DNA of 30,652 nucleotides from NCBI RefSeq assembly GCF_006345805.1, contig NW_021832497.1, positions 1-30,652 on the forward strand. Reading direction: 5' to 3'. The notes beneath the pieces are model-generated. The model did no database searches. It had not been told where the DNA came from and worked only from the letters and a program-made list of their open reading frames with translations. Below are positions 5,106 to 26,870 of the stretch, one piece after another. The DNA comes from Octopus sinensis. Lineage: Eukaryota. The position numbers were made by a program, and so were the translations under genes. Position 1 is the stretch's first letter, and every line of letters begins with the position of its first letter.

Positions 5106-5608
5106 TCATGTGTGACCGTCAATATGCATGTGCGCTTGTGCATGCACATATTTATGTATGTATGTATGTATGTATGTATGTATGTATGTATGTATGTATG
5201 TGTGTATGTATTTTTGTATGTATGTGAGTATGAATATATGTATGCATGTATGCATGCGTGTGTGTACGAATTTATGTATATATATATATATATATGTATT
5301 CTGTATATTCATGTTTGTGCGTTTTTGTGCATGTGTGTGTATCTCTGTGTGTACCTCTGTCTCCCAGCTGAAGCGCATTTGAGTGACGCTACGCGTATGG
5401 TTTTGTGTGACTATGTACTTTCGTATGTTATGTATAGATATGTGTCTCCATATGTTTTTGCTAGTATGCGTGTGTGGAGTGTGCGTATGTATATGGTTCG
5501 GTCTCCTTTTGTCTGTGCTTTTGTTTGTATTACCTATGTAACAGTCTATCGACTCTCCTATGTATGTATTTGTTCACATATACATTCATTTACCTACCTA
5601 CATATATA

Positions 5609-5644
<36 letters not shown>

Positions 5645-5645
<1 letters not shown>

Positions 5646-6151
5646 GAAAATTGTAATGGAGATAAGTCTCCAGTATATAATACAGCTGTTTTTTTCGCTT
5701 GTATATGAATTAAAGATTAATAAAATTTGGTATACGCTAAAAATTTCAGATATTTGTCTTAAACATTCAGACAAGCAAATTCATAATTCAGATGTATGAT
5801 ATATTATTCTATTCAAACAACTACATATTTACATTAAGACATAGATGATAAAACTATAGTAATATAAGAATATACACATAAACAATAAAAAACAAAACAT
5901 AAAATTATATAAGGAGTACCATGAATGTAGAAAATATATATAGAATAGATTAAAGGAGGTGATGGAAAAGATCAATCAAACCTATGACCGTTTCAGAAAA
6001 GTGTTATGGGGCCATGGGAAATAATCCAAATTCAAGTCCCTGTATAAAAACATCTTCTTCCTCAGGGTTCCATTCTCGTGGTGAAATTTCAGATGGTTAT
6101 TGGGTATCGAATGGATGAATATAAATGACAGACCAAAAATAAAAGCAAATG
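5645..6151 (-). mobile_element. Non-coding HHR-bearing insert (PLE pLTR/retrozyme-like) between (TA)n runs
   Basis: Bounded by TA runs on both sides. It contains the HHR at 5974-6074 and a decayed HHR-like fold at ~5678-5795. Confidence 0.55.
5974..6074 (-). ncRNA. Type I hammerhead ribozyme with extended helix II; helix III pair lost
   Basis: Minus strand: GAACC, CTGAGGA (6065-6059), AGAAGATGTT...AACACTTTTCT (64 nt), GAAA (5994-5991), C-GGTC-ATA, GGTTT. Helix I is GAACC/GGTTT. The ATA triplet probably came from GTA by CpG decay. Confidence 0.7.
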
Positions 6152-6202
6152 TATATATATATAAAGTCAAGGTAGAAAATGGTAAAGTAATTTTATAAAA
6201 TA

Positions 6203-6724
6203 CTAGCAGTATCGCCCGGCGTTGCTCGGGTTTGTAAGGGAAATAACTATATAAGCATTTTTAGTGACTTATAGCAAAAAAAATAGCAAAAAAATGCATT
6301 AAAAATGGAATAAAAAATGATGGTAATTTTGGTGTCTTCAAGCCATGAAGTCGTTGTTCTAAAAGAACGCTGGTCTCCTTGAAAATGCTTTACGACGTTG
6401 ATTTCCTTAGACTCCCTTCCCCACAGCTTCACGAGGGAGGGAAGAGGGGGAGAAGCAGACACAGGTACAGGTGTTTGAGCGTGGACGCCAACTCCGCCGC
6501 CATCGACACACGAAAAAATATGCGTTAAAATGGAAAATGATGTTAAATTATTTTAAAATCGTAGACTCATCGTAGACGCGCGCTAATACCCAGACGGGCT
6601 CGATATTAATCACGACTATAAGATACCCGAAGTTGGTTAAACTGCACCGCAAAATGTGGGAGTAGTTAGGAATCTAAATCGTAGGAGACAGACACTCACA
6701 CAACTACAGTTTTATATATATAGA
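6203..6724 (-). mobile_element. Non-autonomous Helitron
   Basis: The minus strand starts TC (6724-6723) after an A and ends CTAG (6206-6203) before a T. A subterminal hairpin CCCG-AGCAACGC-CGGG lies just upstream of the CTAG. No TSD and no ORF. Confidence 0.8.
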
Positions 6725-8255
6725 TATTTCAGTACCGGTTTCAGTCATTGAGACTTTTTCAATTATAAGTATCGAAAACAATTAAATTTTAGAAAAATTG
6801 AAAGAATATTTGCATAGTGTTCAAATGCAAGGGGCATTTTCCTTGTTTCTGCCTGTCTCTGTCTCTCTTTTTTACACCTGTATGTTCGAGGTCGTTGTGA
6901 ATTCTTGGCAGGGAAGAAAAAAAAGGGAAGAAGAAGAAGGAGGAGGAGCAGTAGGAAGAGGAGAAGAAGAATGCGGGAGTGCCATGGTAGTAGTAAGATG
7001 TTAAATGTTCAAGTGCTTCCCCGGACAAACCAGAATGAATATCCCCTACAATCTAGCAAAATGGATATGTACTATAGTTTCTAATGCAAACACTAGATAC
7101 ACGAATACATGAACTAAATGATACACTCATAACCAGGAACTACCCACCTTCACTAATTGACATATGCTTTCAACGTGCTCTTCAACTCAACATCCACGAA
7201 CTCAGACATCCCAAATTAAAGAAGGATTTACAAACAAAAGCCCTACCATACATCTCCACACACAACCCTTTTAACAATGAAGCCTTCGACACCATCCTTC
7301 AAAAGTTTCCCCTACTAAAAGTAGGACCACAGAATGAACTTAATCCTCCAAACAAACACCATCATAAAAAGCAAGAGACAACCCAAATCTATGAAAAGTC
7401 TCGTAACAGAAGCCCGGATACGTTCAACAACAACACAGATGCCGTCAGTAAAGAAATGTGAAAGACCCAACTAGGTGATATGCGTCAATATAATGGGAGA
7501 GATCAGAGTTCTTCTTCAAACAGGGACAACGTTTCACACGTAAATGTATGACTTTGCACAGATTCCACATCAATATTCCCCAAAATAGAAATATAACATC
7601 GACATTTGAGCCAATAAAACAAATCCAAGCTTCAGAATTTTTCCCTTCTACCAATTCGGGGACAATACAACCTGTAGCCAATGAATTAGTAAAGAGACTC
7701 TCTTAATTACAAAATACAGACCCCTTTTGAACGCGTCTACAACAAACGACATATCCACCACGGCCTTAGAATAACACAACCACACACGCAAATATTAAAA
7801 ATGATACACTCAAGAGATTCCCAATAATTCATTAAAAATCAGTCCCAATCACTGCTCTAATCCATAACAATTACTTTCAGGTCACTTAACCAATTAACAT
7901 CATACTACTATGATACCACCTACATCGCTCCCTTATTCTCCCTTCTCTTTCCCATTCTTCTTCTTCGTCTTCTCCCTCTCTGCCACCTCCTTCCTAATTT
8001 TACCAGTATTGCTGTTTAGAATAGCACCTACGCAATTTTTTTTAAACAATACATTCAAAAGCGATGTCTCAAGAATTTCATTACTACCACCATCCACAAC
8101 AAGTCACTTTCAGGGCACTTGACCATTTAACATCCTACTACTACCATGGCACTCCCTCATTCTTCTTCTCCTCCTCCTCCTTCTTCCCTGCCAAGAATTC
8201 ACAGCGACTTCGAACCCACATTCATATTTCGGCGTTTTCTGTATTTTTCAAAATT
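6725..8255 (+). mobile_element. 5'-truncated Penelope-like element (Neptune-type) with an inverted pLTR copy
   Basis: The plus strand at ~7038-7740 encodes NIPYNLAKWICTIVS, RIHELNDTLITRNYPPSLID, LPYISTHNP, a Cys linker (VKKCERPN..IC), FRIFPFYQF and ETLLITKYRPLLN, with frameshifts. It is flanked by the inverted repeat 6879-7016 / 8115-8220. Confidence 0.8.
6727..6770 (-). ncRNA. Minimal hammerhead-like motif, U3-A8 core variant
   Basis: Minus strand: TTGAAAA (6762-6756), AGTC-tcaat-GACT, GAAA (6742-6739), C-CG-GTA. Helix III is the palindrome ACCGGT. Helix I pairs poorly. Confidence 0.5.
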
Positions 8256-10130
8256 TAAATTTTCTCTATTCTAACGTTCTTGTAGAGAAATTGTTTCTTT
8301 GCATTGATAGATGGGGAAACCTGCAAATTTTGGTCGGCTATACTCTGCACACCACTTTATGTTCACTCAATGAAATTTGTACTTTGGGAATCGGATCCGT
8401 TTCTTATATATAGTGTGGGTTTCTTTAATGTCTTACTTGTCTGCCCTACATAGTTATGTCCACAACCTGAACAAGTTATAACATAAATTAGATTCTCGGA
8501 AGTTCAAGTGAAGTTGGTTTCCCTTGTGAATATCCTCTCTCGTTTTAATAGCAATTCCAAGCTTTCCCGTAGGTCGGGACATGTTCCACAGTTTGGAAGT
8601 CCACATTTTTTAGCTATTGATTTCGTGGTTGTTGTGTAAAGCTCCTCATTTGTCAAACGTCTTTACAGCGATTTCTGTTGTTTTTTGCATTTGATGAATT
8701 AATATGTTTTCAGAATGTTCATTTTTTGGATCACTAGCTGGTATAGATAGAATTTGTACAATAGTATTGTGTGTCTTATCGATTCTAGGGTTGTGAGTTG
8801 ATATATACGGTGGTACATTGAAATGAGATGTAGTGCTACGTTGTTTTGTTTTTTTTTAGTGTTTAATGCCTAATTTCTTGGCATGCTTAATCCCATCATC
8901 TATATATGAGTGTGAATATTGTCTCTTAATGTTTTTCTTAGGTGCTGTAGACGGAAGTCCCGAGTAGTTCAATCAGACACTATTATGCAAATCCTTATCA
9001 CCAAATTAAAGGGGGTATTTCCTTTGATGTATTTCCCCTGGCATGAGCTAAACAGAAGATATTGCGTCTAGTCCGTTGATATATGATAAACGTCATTTAC
9101 AATTTTGTTGTTGGTTGTTTTATCATAATATCTAAGAAAGAGAGCTGTTCTTTGCTATACTCCATTGTAAATTGAATGTTAGGGTATATATTATTTAGTA
9201 TTGATTTGTATCCCAAAAGTTTATCAATGGTCTCATTCCAAATCATAAAGCGGTCATCCAGATATCTTTTCCAGTTCTCTCGTATATAATGGTGAAATTG
9301 ATACCCATTTATTTCTAGTGATACTTCGTATATGGTGAATTCTAAATATCCCATTATTAGGTTTGCAAGAGCAGGGATTGCTTTCGATCCCATCGCAATT
9401 CGACATTTTTGACAATAGTAGGTGTCATCAAATTCGAAGTCATTTTTCTGAAGTATATATTTTAAAGTTTCATTAATAAAAACCTGGTTTATGCGTTCCG
9501 GAAGTTCTTCGGGCTATTTTCCAGTCGGAAGTTTATTGCATAGTCATGTGGGATATTGGTGTAAAGATTGATAACATCGAAGGAAACCGATAATGTCTGT
9601 TCGTTAGTTGTTTTGGTAGGTGCTCAAGCATATCTAGATCGTCTCTAATGAAACTTTTTATATATTTCAGCACTTCCTTTGTCTGCTTCTTTAATTGCCA
9701 GTTCTTTCTCGTTTTGCAGTTCAATTAGTATTTTCCATTCTAAATTGTTGAGTTTTGAATTATCTCATCGCTTATGGAAAGTATCTGGGAAATGTTGGCT
9801 ATGGTCGCAGATGTCATCTGGCGTTTTACTCCTACCCTTAAGTGGGAGATAATTGCTTCCATTTCTAACCAGTGATCCGTCCTCGTTGTTGTAGTCAGTT
9901 AGTGCTTCTAATAGTCGTTGCGTTGTTTTCTTCAAAATTCCGAAATATTGTCTTTAATTTCATTCTGTTTAGATCTTCGTGGTGTTTGTGTAAATTTTAA
10001 TCCTTTAGATAATATACAGATTTTTGTTGCAGAGAGAGATCACTTTGATACAATTAATACTTTGTGTTCCTCGTGTATGCTTTGTTCCAACGTGTGTCCG
10101 TCTCCCTCTACTCGGTCTAAAATTGTTTAG
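8255..10130 (-). mobile_element. Near-full-span but deleted and frameshifted Penelope-like element (Neptune-type RT plus GIY-YIG)
   Basis: Minus-strand motifs in order: LSKGLKFTQTP (~10000), IKEADKG (~9685), IRDDLDMLEHLP, AMGSKAIPALANLIMGYLE, WKRYLDD, LSFLD, Cys linker CGLPNCGTCP (~8590) and GIY-YIG NLIYVITCSGCGHNYVGQTS (~8435-8495). Confidence 0.92.
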
Positions 10131-10981
10131 CAAATGAACTCAGTTTCACTCAGGTTTAATACATCATGTTGTTAGTGACCGTAGATTAAAAGCCGTTAAC
10201 GAGGTACATATTATGTTTGGAAGTTATAGATTCAGACAGTGAGTAGTTAAGAAAAGTAAGAAAAATAAGAAAACTGAAGAGAATAAGACATGCAATTAAG
10301 TAAAACATCAGGTGTGTCAGTACCCAGGTATAGTTACTCCCATTCCCATCCCACTCCCACACTTTCCTTTTTTATATAAATACACACATTCGCACATAAT
10401 GCGGACTTACGCAGATACCATTAAACTGTTCAACCATTCTTGTAGCGGGACATAGAATGCAGTTTTCATTTTTGTCAAAATGTATGTAAATTTGAGGCCG
10501 GACAAAAATTATAAGTATGCACAAAAGCACAACGAATTGACGAATTCAGCAATGTGACACGTTTGCAATAATTGTGGAATGTTCTTTAAGAGAGTCTCCA
10601 GGTTTGAAAGCCAAATCCGTTCTCACTTGACGAATTAACACTGTATTTGTGCTTAAGATGGCCAAGCTTTCAGAAACATAAATTTATATTCATAAACATA
10701 CACAAATACTCAAGCACCATACACACACACTCAATTAACATGCAAATTATATATCGAAGATTATATCAATAAATTTCAGCTAATTAATGAGACCAATATA
10801 AGACCTGTCGTAGTAGAGGTATTTTGGATGTAGCAATAATTCGTTACGGGAATCACTCTTTGTATTGAAATAATGTTTATAGCATTCCCTTTGCAAAAGA
10901 TCGTATGTATGTGCACGTTGGAATTAATTGTGTGTGGGTAGGCAGTCTCACACACACACAAACACGCACAAACACACAATG

Positions 10982-11031
<50 letters not shown>

Positions 11032-11094
11032 TATGTGTGTATGTGTGTATATGTGTGTGCATTTGTATTTATGTAAATTTATCTATCAATTTGC

Positions 11095-11663
11095 TTATAT
11101 ATATATATATACATATATACATTCTCTCCTCATTCACTATGCATATATACATAAATATACAAATATATATATACATACAAGCATATATATAAATGCACAG
11201 GCATATACATAACTTATTGTATATATAAAATGTAGATGTAATTATGATATAGGACCCTGGGGAGATTCGTGAAGTGTCACAGTTCTCATGTTCCATTCTC
11301 TCAACGTAATAAGTTTAATCATCCATTAACAGATACCATCAAAGAAAAAAGTCACGAAACTCACTTCATTTAAATAGATGATATTCTATTCTCCCCCCCT
11401 CACTCTCTTTCTTCCTTTATATATATATGAGTACATATACTTACTGGTTTATATCTCTTTACATATGTATATATGTCTGTGTATATACGTATGTGTAGAT
11501 ATACGTCTATATGCATGCATACGCAAATCCTGACATATGGATAGTATGTGATTATTTCCCTGCCACTATATATATTCATATATATATATATATATATATA
11601 CGCTTGTGTGTGTGTATGCATGTATGTATATACATATATATAATGTATATTATATGTATATAT

Positions 11664-11730
<67 letters not shown>

Positions 11731-12053
11731 GATATATATATATATATATATATGTATGTACATACATACGTATATATATATCAGTGTTTACGTGTGTTCA
11801 GAATTTTACAGTTATGTGGAGTTATGCGCTCATAACAAAGCAATGTATAACACAAAACTGTTACTTATGCGCGTGATAATTAACGTTAATTTCGTATATC
11901 TTCTGGTAGAATTTGAAATAATACTTCCCCGTGTTGTATTTTAATGTCAGAATCATATCGAATTCTGTCCTTCTCTTTCACTAAACTATGTATATATATA
12001 TATATATATATATGTATATGCGTGTGCGTGTGTGAGTGTGTGTGTATGCATAT

Positions 12054-12085
<32 letters not shown>

Positions 12086-12631
12086 TACATTCTCTCCTCA
12101 TTCACTATGCATATATACATAAATATACAAATATATATATACATACAAGCATATATATAAATGCACAGGCATATACATAACTTATTGTATATATAAAATG
12201 TAGATGTAATTATGATATAGGACCCTGGGGAGATTCGTGAAGTGTCACAGTTCTCATGTTCCATTCTCTCAACGTAATAAGTTTAATCATCCATTAACAG
12301 ATACCATCAAAGAAAAAAGTCACGAAACTCACTTCATTTAAATAGATGATATTCTATTCTCCCCCCCTCACTCTCTTTCTTCCTTTATATATATATGAGT
12401 ACATATACTTACTGGTTTATATCTCTTTACATATGTATATATGTCTGTGTATATACGTATGTGTAATATAGTCTATATGCACATATACGCAAATCCTGAC
12501 ATATGGATAGTATGTGATTATTTCCCTGCCACTATATATATTCATATATATATATATATATATATATATACTTATATATGATGTTTGTGTGTGTGTATGC
12601 ATGTATGTATATACATATATATTATATGTAT

Positions 12632-12683
<52 letters not shown>

Positions 12684-12938
12684 ATATATATCTATATATA
12701 TATATGTATGTACATACATACGTATATATATATCAGTGTTTACGTGTGTTCAGAATTTTACAGTTATGTGGAGTTATGCGCTCATAACAAAGCAATGTAT
12801 ACACAAAACTGTTACTATGCGCGTGATAATTAACGTTAATTTCGTATATCTTCTGGTAGAATTTGAAATAATACTCTCCCCGTGTTGTATTTTAAATGTC
12901 AGAATCATATCGAATTCTGTCCTTCTCTTTCACTAAAC

Positions 12939-12973
<35 letters not shown>

Positions 12974-13011
12974 TATATGTATATGCGTGTGCGTGTGTGA
13001 GTGTGTGTGTA

Positions 13012-13045
<34 letters not shown>
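11095..13045. repeat. Tandem duplication, ~970-bp unit, 2 copies
   Basis: ATTCTCTCCTCATTCAC occurs at 11121 and 12089 (offset 968). The unique parts are near-identical; differences are mostly microsatellite length and small indels. Confidence 0.92.
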
Positions 13046-13050
<5 letters not shown>

Positions 13051-13117
13051 ATACATAGGTATGTATGTATATATATTATAATATATATATATATATAATT
13101 GTGGGTGTATGTATGTA

Positions 13118-13870
13118 CAAGGGTTGGACAAAATATGGAAACACCTAGTATCATATCATCATAATTTTGAAATATCTACAAAACAAGTTTATTTTTATAT
13201 TTTTATGTTTTGAATTATTATTAGTGTTACTTAATAAGTTTTGCTAAAATTGCTGCTTCTTTTCACAAAAAAAGGCAATTAAAATTATTCAGTTGACAGA
13301 CCTATCGGACTGTGAAACGGCGTTAGGAAAACAGCCGAAATGTTTGATCTATCTAGAAGTACTGCCTTGAAATTATTGACATCCTTTGAGAAAGAGGCAA
13401 AAACTTCCTCGTCGAAAATCTCCGGATGAAAATCAAAACTTTCAGATAGGGACCGTCGGACTCTTACGCAAATTGTTAGAAAGGATCACAAAAGTACAGC
13501 TCCCCAAATTACTGCAGAACTTAATGACCACCTCCAGAACCCAGTTTCCACGAAAATATTCGCCGGGAGCTGCACCAGGCTGAATTTCACGGGAGGGCTG
13601 CAATAAGAATAACATTACTTTCAAAAAACAAACTTTGCAAAGCGTTTAGAGTAGAGTAAAAACTTATAGAATTGGTCCCTAAAGCAGTGGAGGAATGTTG
13701 TTTTCTCTGACGAATCATCCTTTATTAACGGCGTATGCGTCTGGAGGCAGCCAAAGAAAGCATTTGGACAAGACTAACTTCTTCCAGCTGTTAAATATGG
13801 AGGCGGATCCGTGATGAGCTGCGGTGCTGCATATGGAAAATCCGCGTGCAGAATTAATAGTCAAGATTAT
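13118..13870 (+). mobile_element. Tc1-like transposon, 5' part (decayed)
   Basis: TA then TIR CAAGGGTTGGACAAAATATGGAAACACCT. Peptides: DRRTLTQIVRKDHKSTAPQITAELNDHLQNPVS, WRNVVFSDES and VKYGGGSVM. Confidence 0.88.
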
Positions 13871-14163
13871 ATATATATATATATTTCTAAAGAGACAGAT
13901 TGTTAGATTGATGCATGGATATATAAGTAAAGAGGTAAGGATAAGCTTAGATATATACATAACACTACGACAGATATGCTTATATAGATACATATGTATG
14001 TGTGTGTGGTGGGTGGGGGTGAGAAGTTTTAAGAACGTTATTTTCATGTAAAGATATATTTTGTTATTTATCATTGCATAAGATATATACAAGATTACCG
14101 CAATGAATAATGGCAATCGCACAAAATAAAACTTGTCTATTGAACAACTTCAGCAGATACAAG

Positions 14164-14199
<36 letters not shown>

Positions 14200-14246
14200 G
14201 ATATGTATATATATATATATATATATGTACATACATATATATATAT

Positions 14247-14500
14247 AAATAAATGAAAGAATGGAGTTGAACGACGATTTAACAAAATTCCTTTATTCTC
14301 GACATATGTTTCAAAGGCTGCATATTCCTAATTTCGAAGGAATCAGGGGTGCACTATGCCGCCTTCTCATCAGGAAAAACAAGGAACTTATGTCTCTGCC
14401 CTTGGCATGTAGCTTCAATCGTGTTTTTCTGACGTGAATTTGCTACCCAGGTATCGGTTAACCGAATTATCCATACTAAGATAATTTATTCAACTACTTA
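14247..14500 (-). mobile_element. Short HHR-bearing insert (PLE pLTR/retrozyme fragment) within (TA)n
   Basis: A ~254-bp unique block with TA runs on both sides, containing the HHR at 14286-14389. Confidence 0.6.
14286..14389 (-). ncRNA. Type I hammerhead ribozyme with extended helix II
   Basis: Minus strand: CTGATGA (14373-14367); helix II GAAGGCGGCATA/TATGCAGCCTTT enclosing the hairpin ATTCCT..AGGAAT; GAAA (14312-14309); palindromic helix III ACATATGT; GTC triplet (14303-14301). Helix I is TTTTC/GAGAA plus distal AAGTTCCTT/AAGGAATTT. Confidence 0.85.
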
Positions 14501-14619
14501 ATATATATATATATATATATATGTATGTATCTTTTATATATACATGTATATATATATATATACATATATATATTATACACATATGCACACACACACACAC
14601 ACACACATTATATATATAT

Positions 14620-14661
<42 letters not shown>

Positions 14662-14671
14662 TATATATATA

Positions 14672-14820
14672 GCTATAGGAGTGGCGTGGGTATGAAGCTT
14701 GCTTCCTAACCTCATGCTTTCGGGTTTAGTCACACTGCGTGGCACCTTGGCAAAGTGCTTTCTACTCTAGCCTCTGACCTAACAAAGCCTTGTGAGCGCA
14801 TTTGATAGACAGAACTGTCC
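14672..14820 (+). mobile_element. tRNA-derived SINE, decayed 5' part
   Basis: Aligns by eye with the start of the SINE at 29950 (GGAGTGGC...CACTGCGTGGCACCTTGG...CAAAGCCTTGTGAG). Confidence 0.8.
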
Positions 14821-14843
14821 CCACCCCACATAATATATATATC

Positions 14844-14909
<66 letters not shown>

Positions 14910-15114
14910 TGACACTATTGAGCCTATTCCAGAACCCTACACAGACAACGTATTCAAGAAGAGACTTTAAGACAAATTTCCCAGGATATTCTTAACTGCA
15001 CACAAAATATGAGAACAAATTTTTTCACTTATTTTTTAATCTCATTATTTCAGAAAAAAAACAGAAATAAAAGCAGGAGTGAAAGCGATACAGAAAAAGA
15101 AGGCAGAACGGAAT

Positions 15115-15181
<67 letters not shown>

Positions 15182-15195
15182 AGAAAGAAAGAAAA

Positions 15196-15231
<36 letters not shown>

Positions 15232-15232
15232 A
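15115..15232. repeat. (GAAA)n microsatellite
   Basis: Seen directly. Confidence 0.95.
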
Positions 15233-15687
15233 GCAGATAGGGAGTAAGGAAGGTCTTTGTCCTTTTTATTTTTTGAGATGGCTATTATTATATTTTTTAT
15301 GTTCGGTAGGTTCGCAGGTGTTTGAAGTTAATGATGTTTCAAGATGTCAATCTTGCATTTTCTGAAGATATCTGTTGTTCTTTCTATATGGGTAAGGGTT
15401 TTTTTATGTGTGAAAGGAGCTTCTTTTAAATTGTATTGTATTCATTTGTTCAGATTGGAAGTGACAATACAAGATGTCAGTTTTGTTTTGCTTTTATAAA
15501 AAATCATCTTCCACACCCACCAACTGTCAGTCTGTTTATCTATGAAACTATGATTATTAAACTGTGTGTAAAATACACATAAATATAGTCAGACATACGC
15601 ACACAATACACACGATAATACATACAATATGAATATGCATACAGAAGCTCGCATTCATCCATCCAGACATCCAGACATATACATATA

Positions 15688-16518
15688 CGAGGTCTGATCA
15701 ACAAGGTTCGGGACTGTTGCCATAGGAACAATGCTAAAGTCCGCAGAGTAAATCCGCCAGGCAAAGATTGAACTTGAAGTCTGCTTTGCATACGCACTAA
15801 GTTTTAACCTTCTTATTTCTTTACTGCCCACAAGGGGCTACACACAGAGAGAACAAACAAGGACAGACAAACGGATTAAGTCGATTATATCGACCCCAGT
15901 GCGTAACTGGTACTTATTTAATCGACCCCGGATGAAAGGCAAAAACTACTTCGGTGGAGTTTGAACTCAGAACGTAACGGCAGGCGATAAACCGCTAAGC
16001 ATTTCGCCCGGCGTGCTAACGATTCCACCAGCTCGCCGCCTAAGTTTTAACCTTCTAGCTCACTTCTATTTACAGCAGTGCGTGGAATGAAGGTATGTAA
16101 TGTGTGATCGTCTCATTGACCCTGGTAGGCCTACGCAGAGTTGCAGAAAGTGTATGGAGAGGAGTGTTTGAACAGCACACACGTGTCTAAGTGGTTCAGA
16201 CATATCCAAGATGGCCGATAAAATGTCAATATTGACGAACGTTCTGAGAGACACCCAACCAGTGAAACTGAGAAATACACCGCAGATGTGCGTACAGCTG
16301 TGCCGAGAAATCGTCGAATGACCAGCCGTGAATTATCAGAGGATGTGCAGTTTAGTTACACGTCAGTTTAGTTTATTATCCCTGAAGATTTGGGTATGAG
16401 AGCGTGTCTGCCAAGTTAGTGTCAAAACTATTTCCAGCTGACCGGAAACAAACTCGGGTTTCATTTGCACAAGATCTCCTTGATTGTGTCAAGAACGATG
16501 AAATTTGAAGCAGATAAT
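15688..16518 (+). mobile_element. Mariner-like transposon 5' fragment, interrupted by a SINE
   Basis: TA then TIR-like CGAGGTCTGATCAA. Decayed N-terminal peptides: VSKWFRHIQDGR*NVNIDERS, VSAKLVSKL and DCVKNDE. It ends before the catalytic domain. Confidence 0.75.
15814..16040 (-). mobile_element. tRNA-derived SINE with a 16-bp TSD
   Basis: Head GGCGGCGAGCTGGTGGAATCGTTAGC with B-box GAGTTCAAAC. The TSD TAAGTTTTAACCTTCT occurs at 15798-15813 and 16041-16056. Confidence 0.92.
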
Positions 16519-16627
16519 GCATACACACGCACACATACAAACATACATGGACATATATGTATAAATAAATATATATATGCATGTATACATATATACATAT
16601 ATATATATACATGTGTGTGCGTGTGTG

Positions 16628-17221
16628 TGTTGAATATATTATATAGTCTGTGACTATTTCTATTTTCTCACTTGACCGCTGGTTGCAGAAAATTTTTCTT
16701 GAATTTTTCTTGAATTTTTTGCTACCCTATATTGATAAATTAATAATTTTTGACTAATTCTGAAATTGTATCAGCAGTTTATATTTGCTGCTGAGTAGTT
16801 GGCGGGGTTACGTTGGATTTCGAAAAATTAGGATATATACACTCGGGGCTTCAGTGGTGTCGCCTCGTGGGTATGTGTTCTCCTTTTCTTTTGGTGATCT
16901 TGCTGATGAAACAAGCCAATCGCAAACGGATTTAATTTAATTTAATTATGTTCGATTGCGTAAAAATTGTTGAAACCTTGCAGGGTACAAAGTTGAAAGG
17001 GATAAATGTTTTTATTTCTCCTTTAGCTTTCAGAATTACTACTATTTTTGCGGTTTGAGTTTGGCTGCTCTTTCAAGTGAGTTGAAGACCTGTTAGGGTC
17101 ATTCCTAATACTTTGTTGAATATATTATATAGTCTGTGACTATTTCTATTTTCTCACTTGACCGCTGGTTGCAGAAAATTTTTCTTGAATTTTTCTTGTA
17201 TTTTTTTGCTACCCTATATTG

Positions 17222-17227
<6 letters not shown>
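16628..17227 (+). mobile_element. Retrozyme-like / pLTR partial-tandem element (486-bp unit plus 113-bp terminal direct repeat) with an HHR
   Basis: 16628-16740 is near-identical to 17114-17227 (about one difference). No ORF. Flanked by (TG)n and a long (TA)n. Confidence 0.75.
16881..17002 (+). ncRNA. Type I hammerhead ribozyme with extended helix II
   Basis: CTGATGA (16903-16909); helix II AACAA/TTGTT with inner CAATCG/CGATTG; GAAA (16972-16975); helix III ACCT-TGCA-GGGT; GTA triplet (16985-16987). Helix I is TTG/CAA plus distal TCCTTTTC/GAAAGGGA. Confidence 0.85.
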
Positions 17228-18034: not shown

Positions 18035-18452
18035 CTTCTTATTTCTTTATTGTCCACAGGAGCTAAACATAGAGGGGACACACAAAGACAGACAGAGGGA
18101 TTAAGTGGATTACATCGACCCCAGTACGGAACTAGTACTTAATTTATCGACCCCGAAAGGATGAAAGGCAAAGTCAACCTCGGCGGAATTTGAACTCAGA
18201 AAGTAACGGCAGACGAAATACCTATTTCTTTACTACTCACAAGGGGCTAAACACAGAGGGGACGACAAGGACAGACAAACGGATTAAGTCGATTACATCG
18301 AACCCAGTGCGTAACTGGTACTTAATTTATCGACCCCGAAAGGATGAAATGCAAAGTCGACCTCGGCGGAATTTGAACTCAGAACGCAGCGGCGGACGAA
18401 ATACCACAAAGCATTTCGGCCGGCGTGCTAACCTTTCTGCCAGCTTACCGCC
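18035..18452 (-). mobile_element. Tandem SINE dimer (full copy plus 5'-truncated copy), same family as 15814-16040
   Basis: GATTACATCG..CCCAGT..ATTTATCGACCCCGAAAGGATGAAA..CCTCGGCGGAATTTGAACTCAGAA occurs twice, ~183 bp apart. Only the right copy has the head. Confidence 0.88.
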
Positions 18453-18678
18453 TTATATTGTATTCGTATTCTACACACACACACATACACACACACACAC
18501 ACATACACACACACACGCACACACGCACACACATACATATATAACCAAAAATCTATCTGAAAAGAGTCAGAAAGACCGGGGTGAGAACGCTAGTAAATAA
18601 GTATCCCAAATACTAGCTAACAAATTTTATTATTTAATACAAGCACACACACACACAGGCATTCATTCATACACATGC

Positions 18679-18876
18679 ACATATACTTATATACACACAT
18701 ATGTATACACTTCTCTATATAAAGAGATACAAATATACATGTTTACACACCCATACTTATGTTGATATGCCTATATTCATATAGGCATATAAACATAAGT
18801 ATGGGTGTGTACACATGTATATTTGTATCTCTTTATATGGAGAAGTGATTACATATGTGTGTACACAAGTATATAT
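18679..18876. repeat. Near-perfect palindrome (98-bp arms, 2-nt spacer)
   Basis: Centre CTATAT-TC-ATATAG at 18771-18784. About 7 mismatches counted by eye. Confidence 0.95.
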
Positions 18877-19171
18877 GTATATATACACACGCAGATACAT
18901 ATACGTTTGTACAATGTGGGAAATTGTTAATCTGTGTCCATGTCATTGTATGGATTTGAATGCGTGCGCGTATATAAAAGCATAATTGCTTCTGAAGTAT
19001 CTGTAATTCTGTGTTTCGCAAATGATAGAGAGTAGATTCCGATGCTTCTAGCTAAATCACCATTGTGAATTATCATTTAATTGTTACAATTGAATAATTA
19101 ATTCAATAAACAGTTGATTTATTAAATAGTGTTAAAAACATAACATCATTACGTGCAACAACGGAAATATT

Positions 19172-24340: not shown

Positions 24341-25480
24341 TTGGGTGGTCTGGAAAATTCGTGCCGATTTTTAAAGGAAATACTTGCCATTATATTTTTA
24401 ATCAACCAAATATGAACCATTTTGTTGCACAATGCGTCTCCATCTTTCCTTTAACTTGAAAATACCCTCTTCCCAGAACTGAGGTGGTTTCATAGCAACG
24501 AATTCATCAATGTATCTTTTTACGTCATCCAAAGAATTGAAATTTTTAGCATTAAGACTATTCTGCAGAGACCTGAATAAGAAGAAATCCAAAGGAGCAA
24601 TGCCTGGTGAATATGGCGGGTAGGGTAACACATCCCAGCCGACCTGCAGCAATTTTCTACTGGTTCCCGAAGAAACGTGCGGTCTTGCATTATCATGTTG
24701 AAAAACAACACCCTTCCCGTTGGACAATTCTGGACGTTCCTCTTGAATTGCTGCTTTTAACTCGTCCAGTTATGTGCAGTATTTCTCATAATTAATTGGT
24801 TGGTTATTTGGGAGAAGCGTATAGTAATGAATTCCTTTCCAGTCTCACCAGACACAAAGCAAGATTTTTTAGGGTGAAGACCCGATTTTGGGGTGGCTAA
24901 GAGTGGCTCATGTCACTTACTCCAAGATCGCTTTCTCTGAACATTTCGGTACATAATCCATTTCTCGTTACCTGTCACAATTTGCTTTAAAAAAAGCACG
25001 TTTTCATTCCGTTTATAAAGGGAAACACAGATGGAAATGCGATCCAAAAGGTTTCTCTCAACTCATGTGATACCCAAACATCGTAGCCATTTGAATACCC
25101 AAGCTTTACCAGGTGCTCATGAATGACGGAATCCGATAGGATGAGGCTCTCTGCCAATTCTCAGGTTGTTCAATGTGGGTTATTCTCAATTAATGACTTG
25201 ATTTGGTCCTCATCTGTAGTGAATGGTCTGCCTGATTACTCTTTATCAATAAGGCTGCAATCTCCAGCTTGGAACCTTGCGAACCACTTCCTTACAGTTC
25301 TTTCGGATAAAGAAACATCACCGTTGACTGCGGGTATTTCTTTGGTTGTTTGTGATGCATTTTTCCACTGTGCACTAAATGGAGATATAGTCCAATCCTA
25401 TTTTATGGACTTCACCATGTTCTAAAATAAGTCGAAAGGTAAGCTATTATAAATCGGCACGAACTTTCTGAACAACCCAA
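24341..25480 (-). mobile_element. Mariner (DD34D) element with both TIRs and a pseudogenised transposase
   Basis: TIRs at 24341-24370 and 25451-25480, with TA on the left and CA on the right. Motifs: WVSHEL, IVTGNEKW, HDNARPH and YSPGIAPLD, with 34 residues between the last two D. Stops and frameshifts throughout. Confidence 0.95.
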
Positions 25481-25860: not shown

Positions 25861-26426
25861 AAAGATGTATGTATGTGTGTTCGTATGTATGCATGCATGT
25901 ATGTATGCATGAATGTTTGCCTACATGTATGTATGTATGTTTGTATGTATGTGTCACTTCGTGTATTTTAGATTTGAATCCGTAGTAGCTTAGATTACGA
26001 ACCAGTTCATGTCATCCAGATAATAAGGGATTACATTGATAAAGTGTGTCCCAAAATATTCAACATTCTGCAAAGCATGCACATATAAATCTTGTATTAG
26101 ATAACCTCCAGAGAAATCAAAGGAAGAAAGACATTCGCATTTATTTCTAAGTATCAGAAATAATTTCATGATTTCCGCACATAGCGATATCGAACAGAAC
26201 TACATATGTGAGTGTCTGTGTATGAGAAAGAGAGAGAGAGAGAGAGGGAGAGGGAGAGAGAGAGAGAGAGAAAGTCAGAGACAGAGATAGACAGAGAAAG
26301 AAAGAAAGAGAATGTCTGTGTGTGCGCTCGTGTGTATATATGTGAGTATATATTATACATGTATATATATCTATGCATGCATGAATGTATATATGTATAC
26401 ATGCATACATATATACACACACACAA

Positions 26427-26476
<50 letters not shown>

Positions 26477-26539
26477 GGCATACATATATATATGTATATA
26501 TATACACACTTACATACATATATATGTGTCTATATATAT

Positions 26540-26571
<32 letters not shown>

Positions 26572-26870
26572 CTTGTATATACATACCTCTGTAATCAAGG
26601 GGTGCATAAATAGAACTTGATTAATTCGATGAAAATGTTATGATTTTCTTTATTCAGTAGGATTTTTTATGGTTTCGATGTAGGTTTCTGAATGCGAGGG
26701 AAAAACTATAGGATTGTTCTAAGACATTTTCCACAATAGTTTACATCGAACGAAAACCCAGTGAATTAATAAAAATAGCAAGCAATAGATTAATCAATTT
26801 TCTAACAAACCAACTATCTACGATAGTCTCTATATACCCATACATATGAACATACGCAGAAATACATTCA

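Follow-up and report, generated by a model that had tools for sequence, protein, structure and literature searches.

Hammerhead motifs in the Octopus sinensis window

The window analysed here, a 30,652-nt stretch of the Octopus sinensis genome (NCBI RefSeq assembly GCF_006345805.1, contig NW_021832497.1, positions 1 to 30,652, forward strand), contains three hammerhead motifs, H1, H2 and H3, each located within a repeat (Table 1). An earlier, sequence-only reading of this region had placed three hammerheads, with gaps of 64, 54 and 62 nt between CUGANGA and GAAA, exactly where we find them. The CUGANGA, GAAA and NUH core elements appear in type I order in all three motifs, with AUA in the window copy of H1, and helices I, II and III are found around the core in H2, in H3 and in family copies of H1. 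Both H2 and H3 pass a strict type I descriptor, for which 200 locally shuffled windows average 0.01-0.05 matches, with a maximum of 1; the window copy of H1 fails. In this copy, the helix III palindrome and the GUA triplet are both mutated: GAAAC is followed by GGTC-ATA, versus GGCC-GTA in the majority of H1 family copies, a change that breaks the helix III pair 15.2-16.2 by creating a C-A mismatch. The window copy of H1 is decayed, and the H1 family itself is intact. All three motifs belong to repeat families: the 40 candidates with the best scores for H1, H2 and H3, out of 1910, 50 and 205, gave 55, 43 and 41 matches, respectively.

Table 1. Features of the window associated with the three hammerhead motifs
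Feature	Positions	Strand	Details
Old, probably Hydra-type PLE, family H1: 5'-truncated 3' end (pLTR region)	5645..6144	-	ends in (TA)n; homology to family loci ~5600-6144
H1 hammerhead, decayed copy	5974..6074	-	core 6065-6059; helix II 6058-5995 (64 nt); GAAA 5994-5991
Young Hydra-type PLE, family H2: sense arm of 5'-truncated insertion	14243..14394	-	short 3' end in (TA)n
H2 hammerhead	14286..14389	-	core 14373-14367; helix II 14366-14313 (54 nt); GAAA 14312-14309; helix III an 8-nt palindrome; GUC; predicted cut after 14301
Same H2 insertion: inverted arm (distal tail of the element)	14393..14499	+	ends in (TA)n
H3 family: ~1.2 units of a 486-nt non-coding tandem repeat	16628..17227	+	long 3' end in (TA)n
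H3 hammerhead	16881..17002	+	core 16903-16909; helix II 16910-16971 (62 nt); GAAA 16972-16975; helix III a 12-nt near-palindrome; GUA; predicted cut after 16987
Predicted pseudoknot strand, 5' side of helix I	16891..16895	+	GGY motif
Predicted pseudoknot strand, internal loop of helix II	16915..16919	+	RCC motif
Distal hairpin closing the helix II internal loop	16921..16960	+	length differs by subfamily

As that reading had described, each insert between CUGANGA and GAAA folds into a closing helix with an inner hairpin, which is single and unbranched in every case, and there is no detectable primary similarity among the three (the local alignment scores are matched by 20%, 38% and 96% of shuffles). 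Compared with shuffled sequences, the folding z scores are -2.03 for H2, -3.41 for H3 and -0.68 for H1, which folds no better than shuffles; more generally, the folding z score of 8 of the 23 long inserts is no better than -2. An inner GAAA-UUA of H2, with a 31-nt gap, was considered as an alternative core and rejected, as it is not conserved in the older subfamilies. The proposal that the three motifs share one architecture is not supported: H1, H2 and H3 are alike in helix II length only, and the predicted base-paired contact described below for the H3 type is absent from H1 and H2.

The hosts of H1 and H2

H1 and H2 are located in the 3' ends of two different Penelope-like elements (PLEs), of Hydra type for H2 and probably of Hydra type for H1. 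In L035/L254, L043 and L057/L251, a Hydra-like endonuclease is followed 300-340 nt on its 3' side by the H1-type hammerhead; by count, the hammerhead lies 3' of a PLE RT-EN ORF in 3 of 29 H1 loci. The RT/EN of the H1 host is represented by broken fragments alone, ~30-47% identical to the H2 ORF. The H2 insertion in the window is 97-98% identical to family copies, and in 22 of 50 loci, with further cases beyond these, the H2 hammerhead lies 3' of the RT-EN ORF at a distance of 520-650 nt; short ends of the H2 family are followed by (TA)n in 32 of 37 cases. The helix III palindrome is 8 nt long in both families. The H2 host encodes RW-type and DKT motifs as well as, at the C terminus, a GIY-YIG domain with CxxC and CxH, without CCHH (compared by eye with PMC8557442; the RW and DKT region was read from the frameshifted 5' part of L171). 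The CxCX5C linker before the endonuclease is absent from this host, with an Asn-rich stretch in its place in L171 and L174, and Pfam named no domain on the Hydra-type ORFs. Neptune-type ORFs were also considered as hosts of H1-H3, and no linkage was found.

[quoted passage not shown] 2021, PMC8557442) the type I core, the palindromic helix III, the location 3' of the RT-EN ORF, the (TA)n targets and the inverted, 5'-truncated copies. Unlike the 26 tabulated Hydra families, in which helix II spans ~9-24 nt (23 nt in Hydra-1_oBim), helix II here spans 53-67 nt. The nearest precedent for such length comes from two Selaginella PLE-X1 hammerheads, with a loop 2 of 29 and 35 nt. In both H1 and H2, helix II is a long irregular stem, and a search for a base-paired contact between helices I and II in these two and in 11 other long hammerheads yielded a longest match of 1-3 bp. 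The long helix II of H1 and H2 is probably a tolerated, stem-preserving extension that would make no special contact. One H2 copy, L185, lacks the inner hairpin.

H3 and its superfamily of non-coding tandem units

The H3 repeat has a different organization. Positions 16631-16740 are repeated at 17117-17227, and elsewhere the family forms tandem arrays of up to 4 units as well as inverted arrays. The unit carries no ORF of 100 aa on its strand, has a GC content of 34% and, when taken from cut to cut and folded as a circle, reaches z -5.5. A pattern that ignores helix II detects 9,195 matches for the superfamily that includes H3, versus 19 for a reversed-pattern control, and of the 226 matches that were fetched, 199 have the core within 130 nt, with a helix II of 42-73 nt bar two mis-assigned matches. 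This superfamily comprises at least 21 subfamilies, H3 being one of them, with non-coding units of 400-490 nt of the retrozyme type; the tandem spacing is 396-489 nt, with one type I hammerhead per unit and up to 6 units. The subfamilies are only 45-69% identical and still retain the core, helices I-III and the palindromes: helix III is 8-12 nt long across the superfamily, and in 16 of the 21 subfamilies it is perfectly palindromic, with 11 different sequences.

We found the H3 hammerhead 3' of a PLE RT-EN ORF (within 1.5 kb) in none of 29 loci, and no autonomous partner of H3 was identified; among other loci of the superfamily, 7 of 79 contain PLE coding sequence, none of it continuous with a unit. 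A loose version of the pattern in viral contigs gave 0 of 120 loci passing the descriptor, and the superfamily pattern in metagenomes gave 0 of 118 loci with both core and palindrome among the matches listed. Contigs from two sequencing runs guessed to be RNA, and from two unlabelled runs, cover the H3 unit; the joint between unit end and unit start is also genomic, so this coverage says nothing on H3 expression or circles.

The manner of insertion is that of PLEs: H3-type units have (TA)n targets, two fixed 3' ends and outward-facing inversions. The two fixed 3' ends map to about +140 and +225 to +240 from the cut. Of 33 H3 ends, 22 fall at the two fixed 3' ends, 20 of these with TA, and 9 further ends continue into the following unit; for the L331 family, the count at two fixed positions is 37 of 49, all with TA. 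Two fixed 3' ends followed by (TA)n are also seen in H2. Among 53 superfamily clusters, counted by hand, the 11 with mixed orientation all face outward. A plausible life cycle would begin with tandem H3-type transcripts being cut once per unit, as monomers or as double hammerheads formed through the palindrome, to yield monomers of 400-490 nt that may circularise and might then be re-inserted in trans by a PLE RT-endonuclease, most likely a (TA)n-targeting one.

A predicted pseudoknot between helices I and II

In the H3 type, helix II combines a stem of 4-6 bp with an internal loop and a hairpin that varies, and the RCC of the internal loop is predicted to pair with the GGY beside helix I. Covariation is observed for helices I-III of the superfamily, in which 93.2% of cells are paired, 8 of 10 pairs show double changes and the covariation score is 0.785, versus 0.251 in shuffled and at most 0.134 in slid alignments. 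For the putative pseudoknot, the flank pairs are Watson-Crick in 43 of 63 cases versus 27.8 +/- 3.4 under permutation (p ~5e-5), and the outer control pairs score 8 versus 11.1. On the tree, loop II changes 5 times at pair +2, each time together with a change beside helix I; in this tree-aware test, none of 75 control columns and none of 569 column pairs does as well. One core pair has changed from G-C to A-U. Pairs -1 and -2 do not exceed their tree-aware controls, with equally high values in 65 of 105 and 22 of 52 columns, an independent-pairs sign test is not significant because there are too few pairs, and the two core pairs served as anchors, which makes their pairing circular. For the short subfamilies, whose alignment is out of register at helix II, RNAalifold gives no consensus of this helix. 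In the distal hairpin, 18 pairs remain unbroken in 12 sequences, with one-sided changes in 9 and two-sided changes in 1. This hairpin is probably a structural cap tolerant of change, by which loop II becomes an internal loop that presents RCC. The earlier suggestion that the insert might carry a tertiary contact is supported for the H3 superfamily, where the predicted contact covaries; no such base-paired contact was found in H1, H2 and the 11 other long hammerheads.

Relationships to known ribozymes

The non-coding tandem units of H3, with one type I hammerhead each, are similar to metazoan non-LTR retrozymes as described in PMC7229834, PMC7761336 and the preprint 10.64898/2026.07.22.740005, as are the low GC content (34%, under the 45% limit used for such retrozymes) and the highly self-paired monomer. 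In contrast to those retrozymes, H3 has an internal loop in its long helix II and a predicted base-paired contact replacing the canonical loop 1-loop 2 contacts; its units of 396-489 nt, known here from genomic sequence, have visible PLE-type ends and inversions. A 2020 review (PMC7761336) describes animal retrozymes as lacking a motif that points to their mobiliser, and the 2026 preprint argues for a PLE origin of retrozymes from distribution and trees.

A structural parallel comes from HDV-like hammerheads with a GCC/GGC pseudoknot, which share with the H3 type a short stem, an internal loop with 5' GCC, a capping hairpin and pairing to GGC on the other arm. HDV-like hammerheads are of type III: helix I bears their internal loop and cap, and YGGC is found in loop II. 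H3 is of type I, and here helix II bears the internal loop and cap, with GGY beside an open helix I. The predicted H3-type pseudoknot mirrors the one known from type III hammerheads of HDV-like RNAs. A Watson-Crick contact between helices I and II is also featured in the pseudoknotted type I-III hammerheads of Perreault et al. (2011, PMC3088659), although repetitive eukaryotic type I motifs were reportedly excluded from part of that analysis. The satCYDV-RPV (+) hammerhead, as cited in PMC7936874, likewise has long helices; unlike H3, it is a type III, viral ribozyme, and its contact is reported to attenuate cleavage.

Possible roles of the long helix II

In our view, with a probability of roughly 0.7, each of the type I hammerhead motifs H1-H3 occupies the 3' end of a different Penelope-type repeat (a probable Hydra-type PLE for H1, a Hydra-type PLE for H2 and a non-coding tandem repeat of 486 nt for H3) and likely cuts the RNA of that repeat, with helix II of H3 predicted to dock onto helix I via a 3-5 bp pseudoknot that would speed cleavage. 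The pseudoknot could also be real and have the opposite effect, slowing cleavage of the monomer, such that tandem double-hammerhead transcripts alone would be cut and the circular monomer would be protected. The retention of the palindrome through the helix III loop speaks for such a role, being needed by dimer pairing alone, but helix I-II pseudoknots raised rates 20- to 100-fold where tested (PMC3088659), a termite HDV-like hammerhead with the mirror-image contact is reported in PMC7936874 to cleave at 0.96 per min, and helix III of H3 can form 4 bp as a monomer; we regard slowing as unlikely. A still less probable role for the distal part of helix II is that of a binding site for a PLE or host protein aiding folding, cleavage or template choice. 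An Anolis PLE hammerhead is reported to have cleaved only with PLE protein present (PMC11167929), and helix II is of the extended size in all four Hydra-type families examined here versus 26 published Hydra families with short ones, but the inserts share no sequence, the distal hairpin ranges from ~6 to 19 bp and varies in sequence within one superfamily, and its register in H2 shifts among subfamilies; no evidence was obtained for the protein-binding module envisaged in the sequence-only reading.

The least probable scenario of all, in our estimate, is that the long helices are neutral expansions, by slippage or local duplication, with ribozyme activity irrelevant and the apparent covariation due to shared descent. 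It could draw on the AU-rich repeats that drive length change in the distal hairpin, on the hammerhead mutants that reportedly had no effect on PLE insertion in vitro (PMC11167929), and on the H2 copy without the inner hairpin, but it is at odds with the conservation of core, helices and palindromes across such divergent subfamilies and with the tree-aware result at pair +2. Neutral expansion is disfavoured for H3; it keeps some likelihood chiefly where the distal regions of H1 and H2 are concerned.

Taking docking of helix II as the preferred reading, one can tentatively, at somewhat less than even odds, go further and envisage a hidden retrozyme superfamily of ~9,000 copies and >20 subfamilies that would carry a mirror-image pseudoknot, so far undescribed, on its extended helix II, be expressed as circles of 400-490 nt and be mobilised by Hydra-type Penelope proteins, with the mechanism shown directly by the PLE insertion signatures; many invertebrate genomes may contain comparable long-arm families that are being missed. 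In this superfamily, a predicted helix I-II pseudoknot of a type I ribozyme comes with its own natural series of covarying sequences, amenable to mutational tests, and loop II provides a natural case of tolerance to large inserts. Insertion-level evidence on the retrozyme mobiliser, testable with purified PLE protein, comes from the two fixed 3' ends, the (TA)n targets and the outward inversions.

Detection and frequency of long helix II

The expectation that searches with short helix II limits miss such motifs is supported: the helix II of 54-64 nt in H1-H3 compares with at most 26 nt in the published PLE descriptor (stem 3-7, loop 3-10), and in Rfam neither H2 nor H3 matches a hammerhead family at E<=10. 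Across the whole window, the 150 Rfam matches listed of 218 are simple-repeat matches alone. A gathering-level Rfam scan of 20 loci gave no match and was also blank at short-hammerhead loci, so that it does not single out long helix II. Hammerhead censuses would heavily undercount this genome because descriptors and Rfam models cap helix II. Long helix II is common in this genome: in an unbiased sample of 600 kb taken at fixed round coordinates, it accounts for about half of the motifs (8 of 14 canonical-core matches, versus 0.25 in shuffles). Short helices II are present in the same sample, in 3 matches below 25 nt and 4 short ones with a variant core.

Three hammerheads with a long helix II

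The hammerheads of the window, here designated H1, H2 and H3 together with their repeat families, have 64, 54 and 62 nt, respectively, between CUGANGA and GAAA, exactly where the sequence-only reading had placed them (Table). In the predicted folds, each insert consists of a closing helix followed by an unbranched inner hairpin, as had been proposed, and comparison of all three inserts detects no sequence relatedness among them, again in agreement with that reading. The folding z values of the inserts are -0.68 (H1), -2.03 (H2) and -3.41 (H3). A strict type I descriptor, for which locally shuffled windows give a background of 0.01-0.05 matches each (200 shuffles), accepts H2 and H3; it rejects the window copy of H1, in which two substitutions have broken helix III and converted the triplet to AUA, and copies elsewhere in the family are intact. 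The original observation on three long-helix-II hammerheads is correct. The single architecture that it took them to share is not borne out: a predicted contact between an RCC strand in the helix II internal loop and a GGY strand beside helix I is found in the H3 type and in neither H1 nor H2.

Table. Features of the window and of loci outside it in the same genome (L-numbers)
Position	Strand	Feature
5974-6074	-	H1 hammerhead
14286-14389	-	H2 hammerhead
16881-17002	+	H3 hammerhead
6733-6762	-	hammerhead-like motif, short helix II, U3-A8 for C3-G8
7014-8250	+	broken PLE fragment, Neptune-type
8220-10100	-	broken PLE fragment, Neptune-type
13120-13850		presumed Tc1/mariner-like transposase remnant
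24398-24769	-	presumed Tc1/mariner-like transposase remnant
18040-18405		183-nt repeat, two copies, SINE-like look
18670-18885		near-perfect long inverted repeat, arms 107 nt, spacer 2-3 nt
26332-26572		near-perfect long inverted repeat, arms 119 nt, spacer 2-3 nt
L171:2174-4108	-	H2 host, Asn-rich insertion in place of CxCX5C linker
L174:959-2806	+	H2 host, Asn-rich insertion in place of CxCX5C linker
L028:702	-	long-helix-II hammerhead, repeats at about 605 nt
L234:45	+	long-helix-II hammerhead, repeats at about 558 nt

Abundance and detectability

When 60 stretches of 10 kb at round coordinates were scanned as an unbiased sample, 14 motifs matched the descriptor, namely 3 with helix II under 25 nt, 3 of 25-39 nt and 8 of 40 nt or more (6 loci), against 0.05, 0 and 0.25, respectively, over 20 shuffles. 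Four more short motifs with a variant core lie beyond the descriptor, so that the long ones make up about 8/18; among 120 viral loci matching a loose core pattern, none passes. The suspicion that searches with short limits would miss such ribozymes proved justified: a published minimal descriptor permits a helix II of at most 26 nt (PMC4209133, supplement), and Rfam, with E up to 10, lists no hammerhead over H2 or H3. In the openly available literature covered, type I hammerheads with a long helix II are nowhere described for cephalopod repeats.

Further long-helix-II hammerheads (43-96 nt) that lack the GGY/RCC contact occur at L028, L234, L049, L316, L324, L339, L238, L267 and L268; L028 and L234 may represent other retrozyme families.

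Hosts of H1 and H2

The H2 family is young (copies 97-98% identical), and in 22 of 50 loci, which were chosen via the endonuclease and beyond which there are further examples, the hammerhead lies 520-650 nt downstream of an ORF for reverse transcriptase and endonuclease. In an alignment, the host protein shows the motifs published for the Hydra clade of Penelope-like elements (PLEs), the CxCX5C linker excepted (PMC8557442), and its assignment to the Hydra type is by motifs; Pfam names no domain in the Hydra-type ORFs. Among named proteins, one from an octopus is nearest to a PLE protein of this 2.7 Gb genome, which makes an octopus the likely host organism. The H2 host inserts into (TA)n even without this linker, which is thought to be tied to (TA)n targeting. 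The H1 family is older; in 3/29 loci a Hydra-like endonuclease precedes the hammerhead by 300-340 nt in the same orientation. Two additional Hydra-like families of this genome also have a long helix II (59 and 62-64 nt). In the 26 Hydra families tabulated in PMC8557442, helix II measures about 9-24 nt; flagged there as deviating are two elements from Selaginella, whose loop 2 has 29 and 35 nt.

Among 16 H2 variants, the 11-bp proximal stem is kept, with some G-C/G-U/A-U exchange, and the inner hairpin shifts register (double changes in 6/30 predicted pairs). One H2 copy downstream of the endonuclease (L185) lacks the inner hairpin, which brings helix II down to 25 nt.

The H3 superfamily and a predicted helix I-II contact

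The non-coding unit in which H3 resides is 486 nt long, occurs in both tandem and inverted arrays and has relatives at 45-69% identity. A pattern without helix II, made up of GAAAC, the predicted cut site and a motif farther downstream, yields 9,195 matches compared to 19 for the reversed pattern; the core lies within 130 nt in 199 of 226 matches from fetched loci. These 199 form 40 variant groups, 36 after removal of 4 (2 truncated inside helix I, 2 with a wrong core), or 21 if they must share less than 90% identity. Their units measure 396-489 nt. In all retained groups helix II spans 42-73 nt: a stem of 4-6 bp leads into an internal loop, which carries RCC on its 5' side, has an A-rich 3' side and is capped by a distal hairpin (about 6-19 bp).

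Helices I-III covary, as the proposal required of helix II: in a 22-row alignment, 93.2% of the cells are paired, 8/10 pairs show double changes, and the score is 0.785, compared with 0.251 after shuffling and no more than 0.134 after sliding; the core-adjacent pair of helix II is open in 11/22 rows. In the long clade (12 rows), none of the 18 distal hairpin pairs is broken, 9 varying one-sidedly and 1 two-sidedly; across 13 short-type rows, whose alignment is out of register, no helix II consensus forms. A perfectly palindromic helix III occurs in 16/21 subfamilies, in the form of 11 different sequences, and the near-palindrome of the window H3 becomes perfect by two changes of equal depth in sequencing-run contigs.

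The loop II RCC is complementary to a GGY that precedes the core by 8-12 nt. When GG and CC are fixed as anchors, 43/63 cells of the flanking pairs hold a Watson-Crick combination, compared with 27.8 for permuted data (p about 5e-5); outer control pairs show no excess. When changes are placed on a tree from which the ribozyme columns were excluded, each of the 5 loop II changes at pair +2 is matched by one beside helix I, a level reached by 0/75 control columns and 0/569 column pairs, and in one core pair A-U has replaced G-C. Pairs -1 and -2 do not exceed the tree-aware controls, and a sign test had too few independent pairs. Support for the contact therefore comes from one well-supported pair, a single event and conservation. 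Sequence comparison thus supports a predicted helix I-II tertiary contact in H3 and its large superfamily. The tertiary contact once suggested for all three inserts would accordingly apply to this type; a base-paired contact to helix I was looked for in H1 and H2, and none was found.

Mobilisation

PLE coding sequence is present at 0/29 H3 loci and at 7/79 other superfamily loci, in none of them continuous with a unit. H3-type insertions have two fixed end points 3' of the predicted cut site, beyond which (TA)n follows: for H3, 22/33 ends fall there (20 with TA) and another 9 read through into the adjoining unit; for the L331 family the figure is 37/49, all with TA. H2 insertions likewise have two fixed 3' ends running into (TA)n. 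Among 53 clusters in the first 100 matches listed, counted by hand, all 11 of mixed orientation have their 3' ends facing outward. PMC8557442 and PMC11167929 describe optional tails, and inverted copies truncated at the 5' end, as features of PLEs. We infer that H3-type units are mobilised by a PLE protein in trans. That this protein is of the Hydra type is a guess; Neptune-type elements of this genome, too, end in (TA)n. A PLE origin of animal retrozymes has already been proposed (preprint 10.64898/2026.07.22.740005), in a work that, in its accessible part, samples no molluscs and does not discuss the helices.

H2 has its two 3' ends about 150 nt apart, and H3 types have theirs 90-100 nt apart; both spacings exceed the tail of 30-40 nt described for other PLEs (PMC8557442).

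Other elements

The PLE fragments of the window carry a CxxxxxCxxC linker, which we take to be Neptune-type. Pfam gives no match at 24401-24769. Neptune-type families (3' UTRs of L121, L124, L127 and L207; L307 and L331) contain short-helix-II hammerheads with U3-A8 or A3-U8 for C3-G8, a replacement that makes them invisible to CUGANGA searches.
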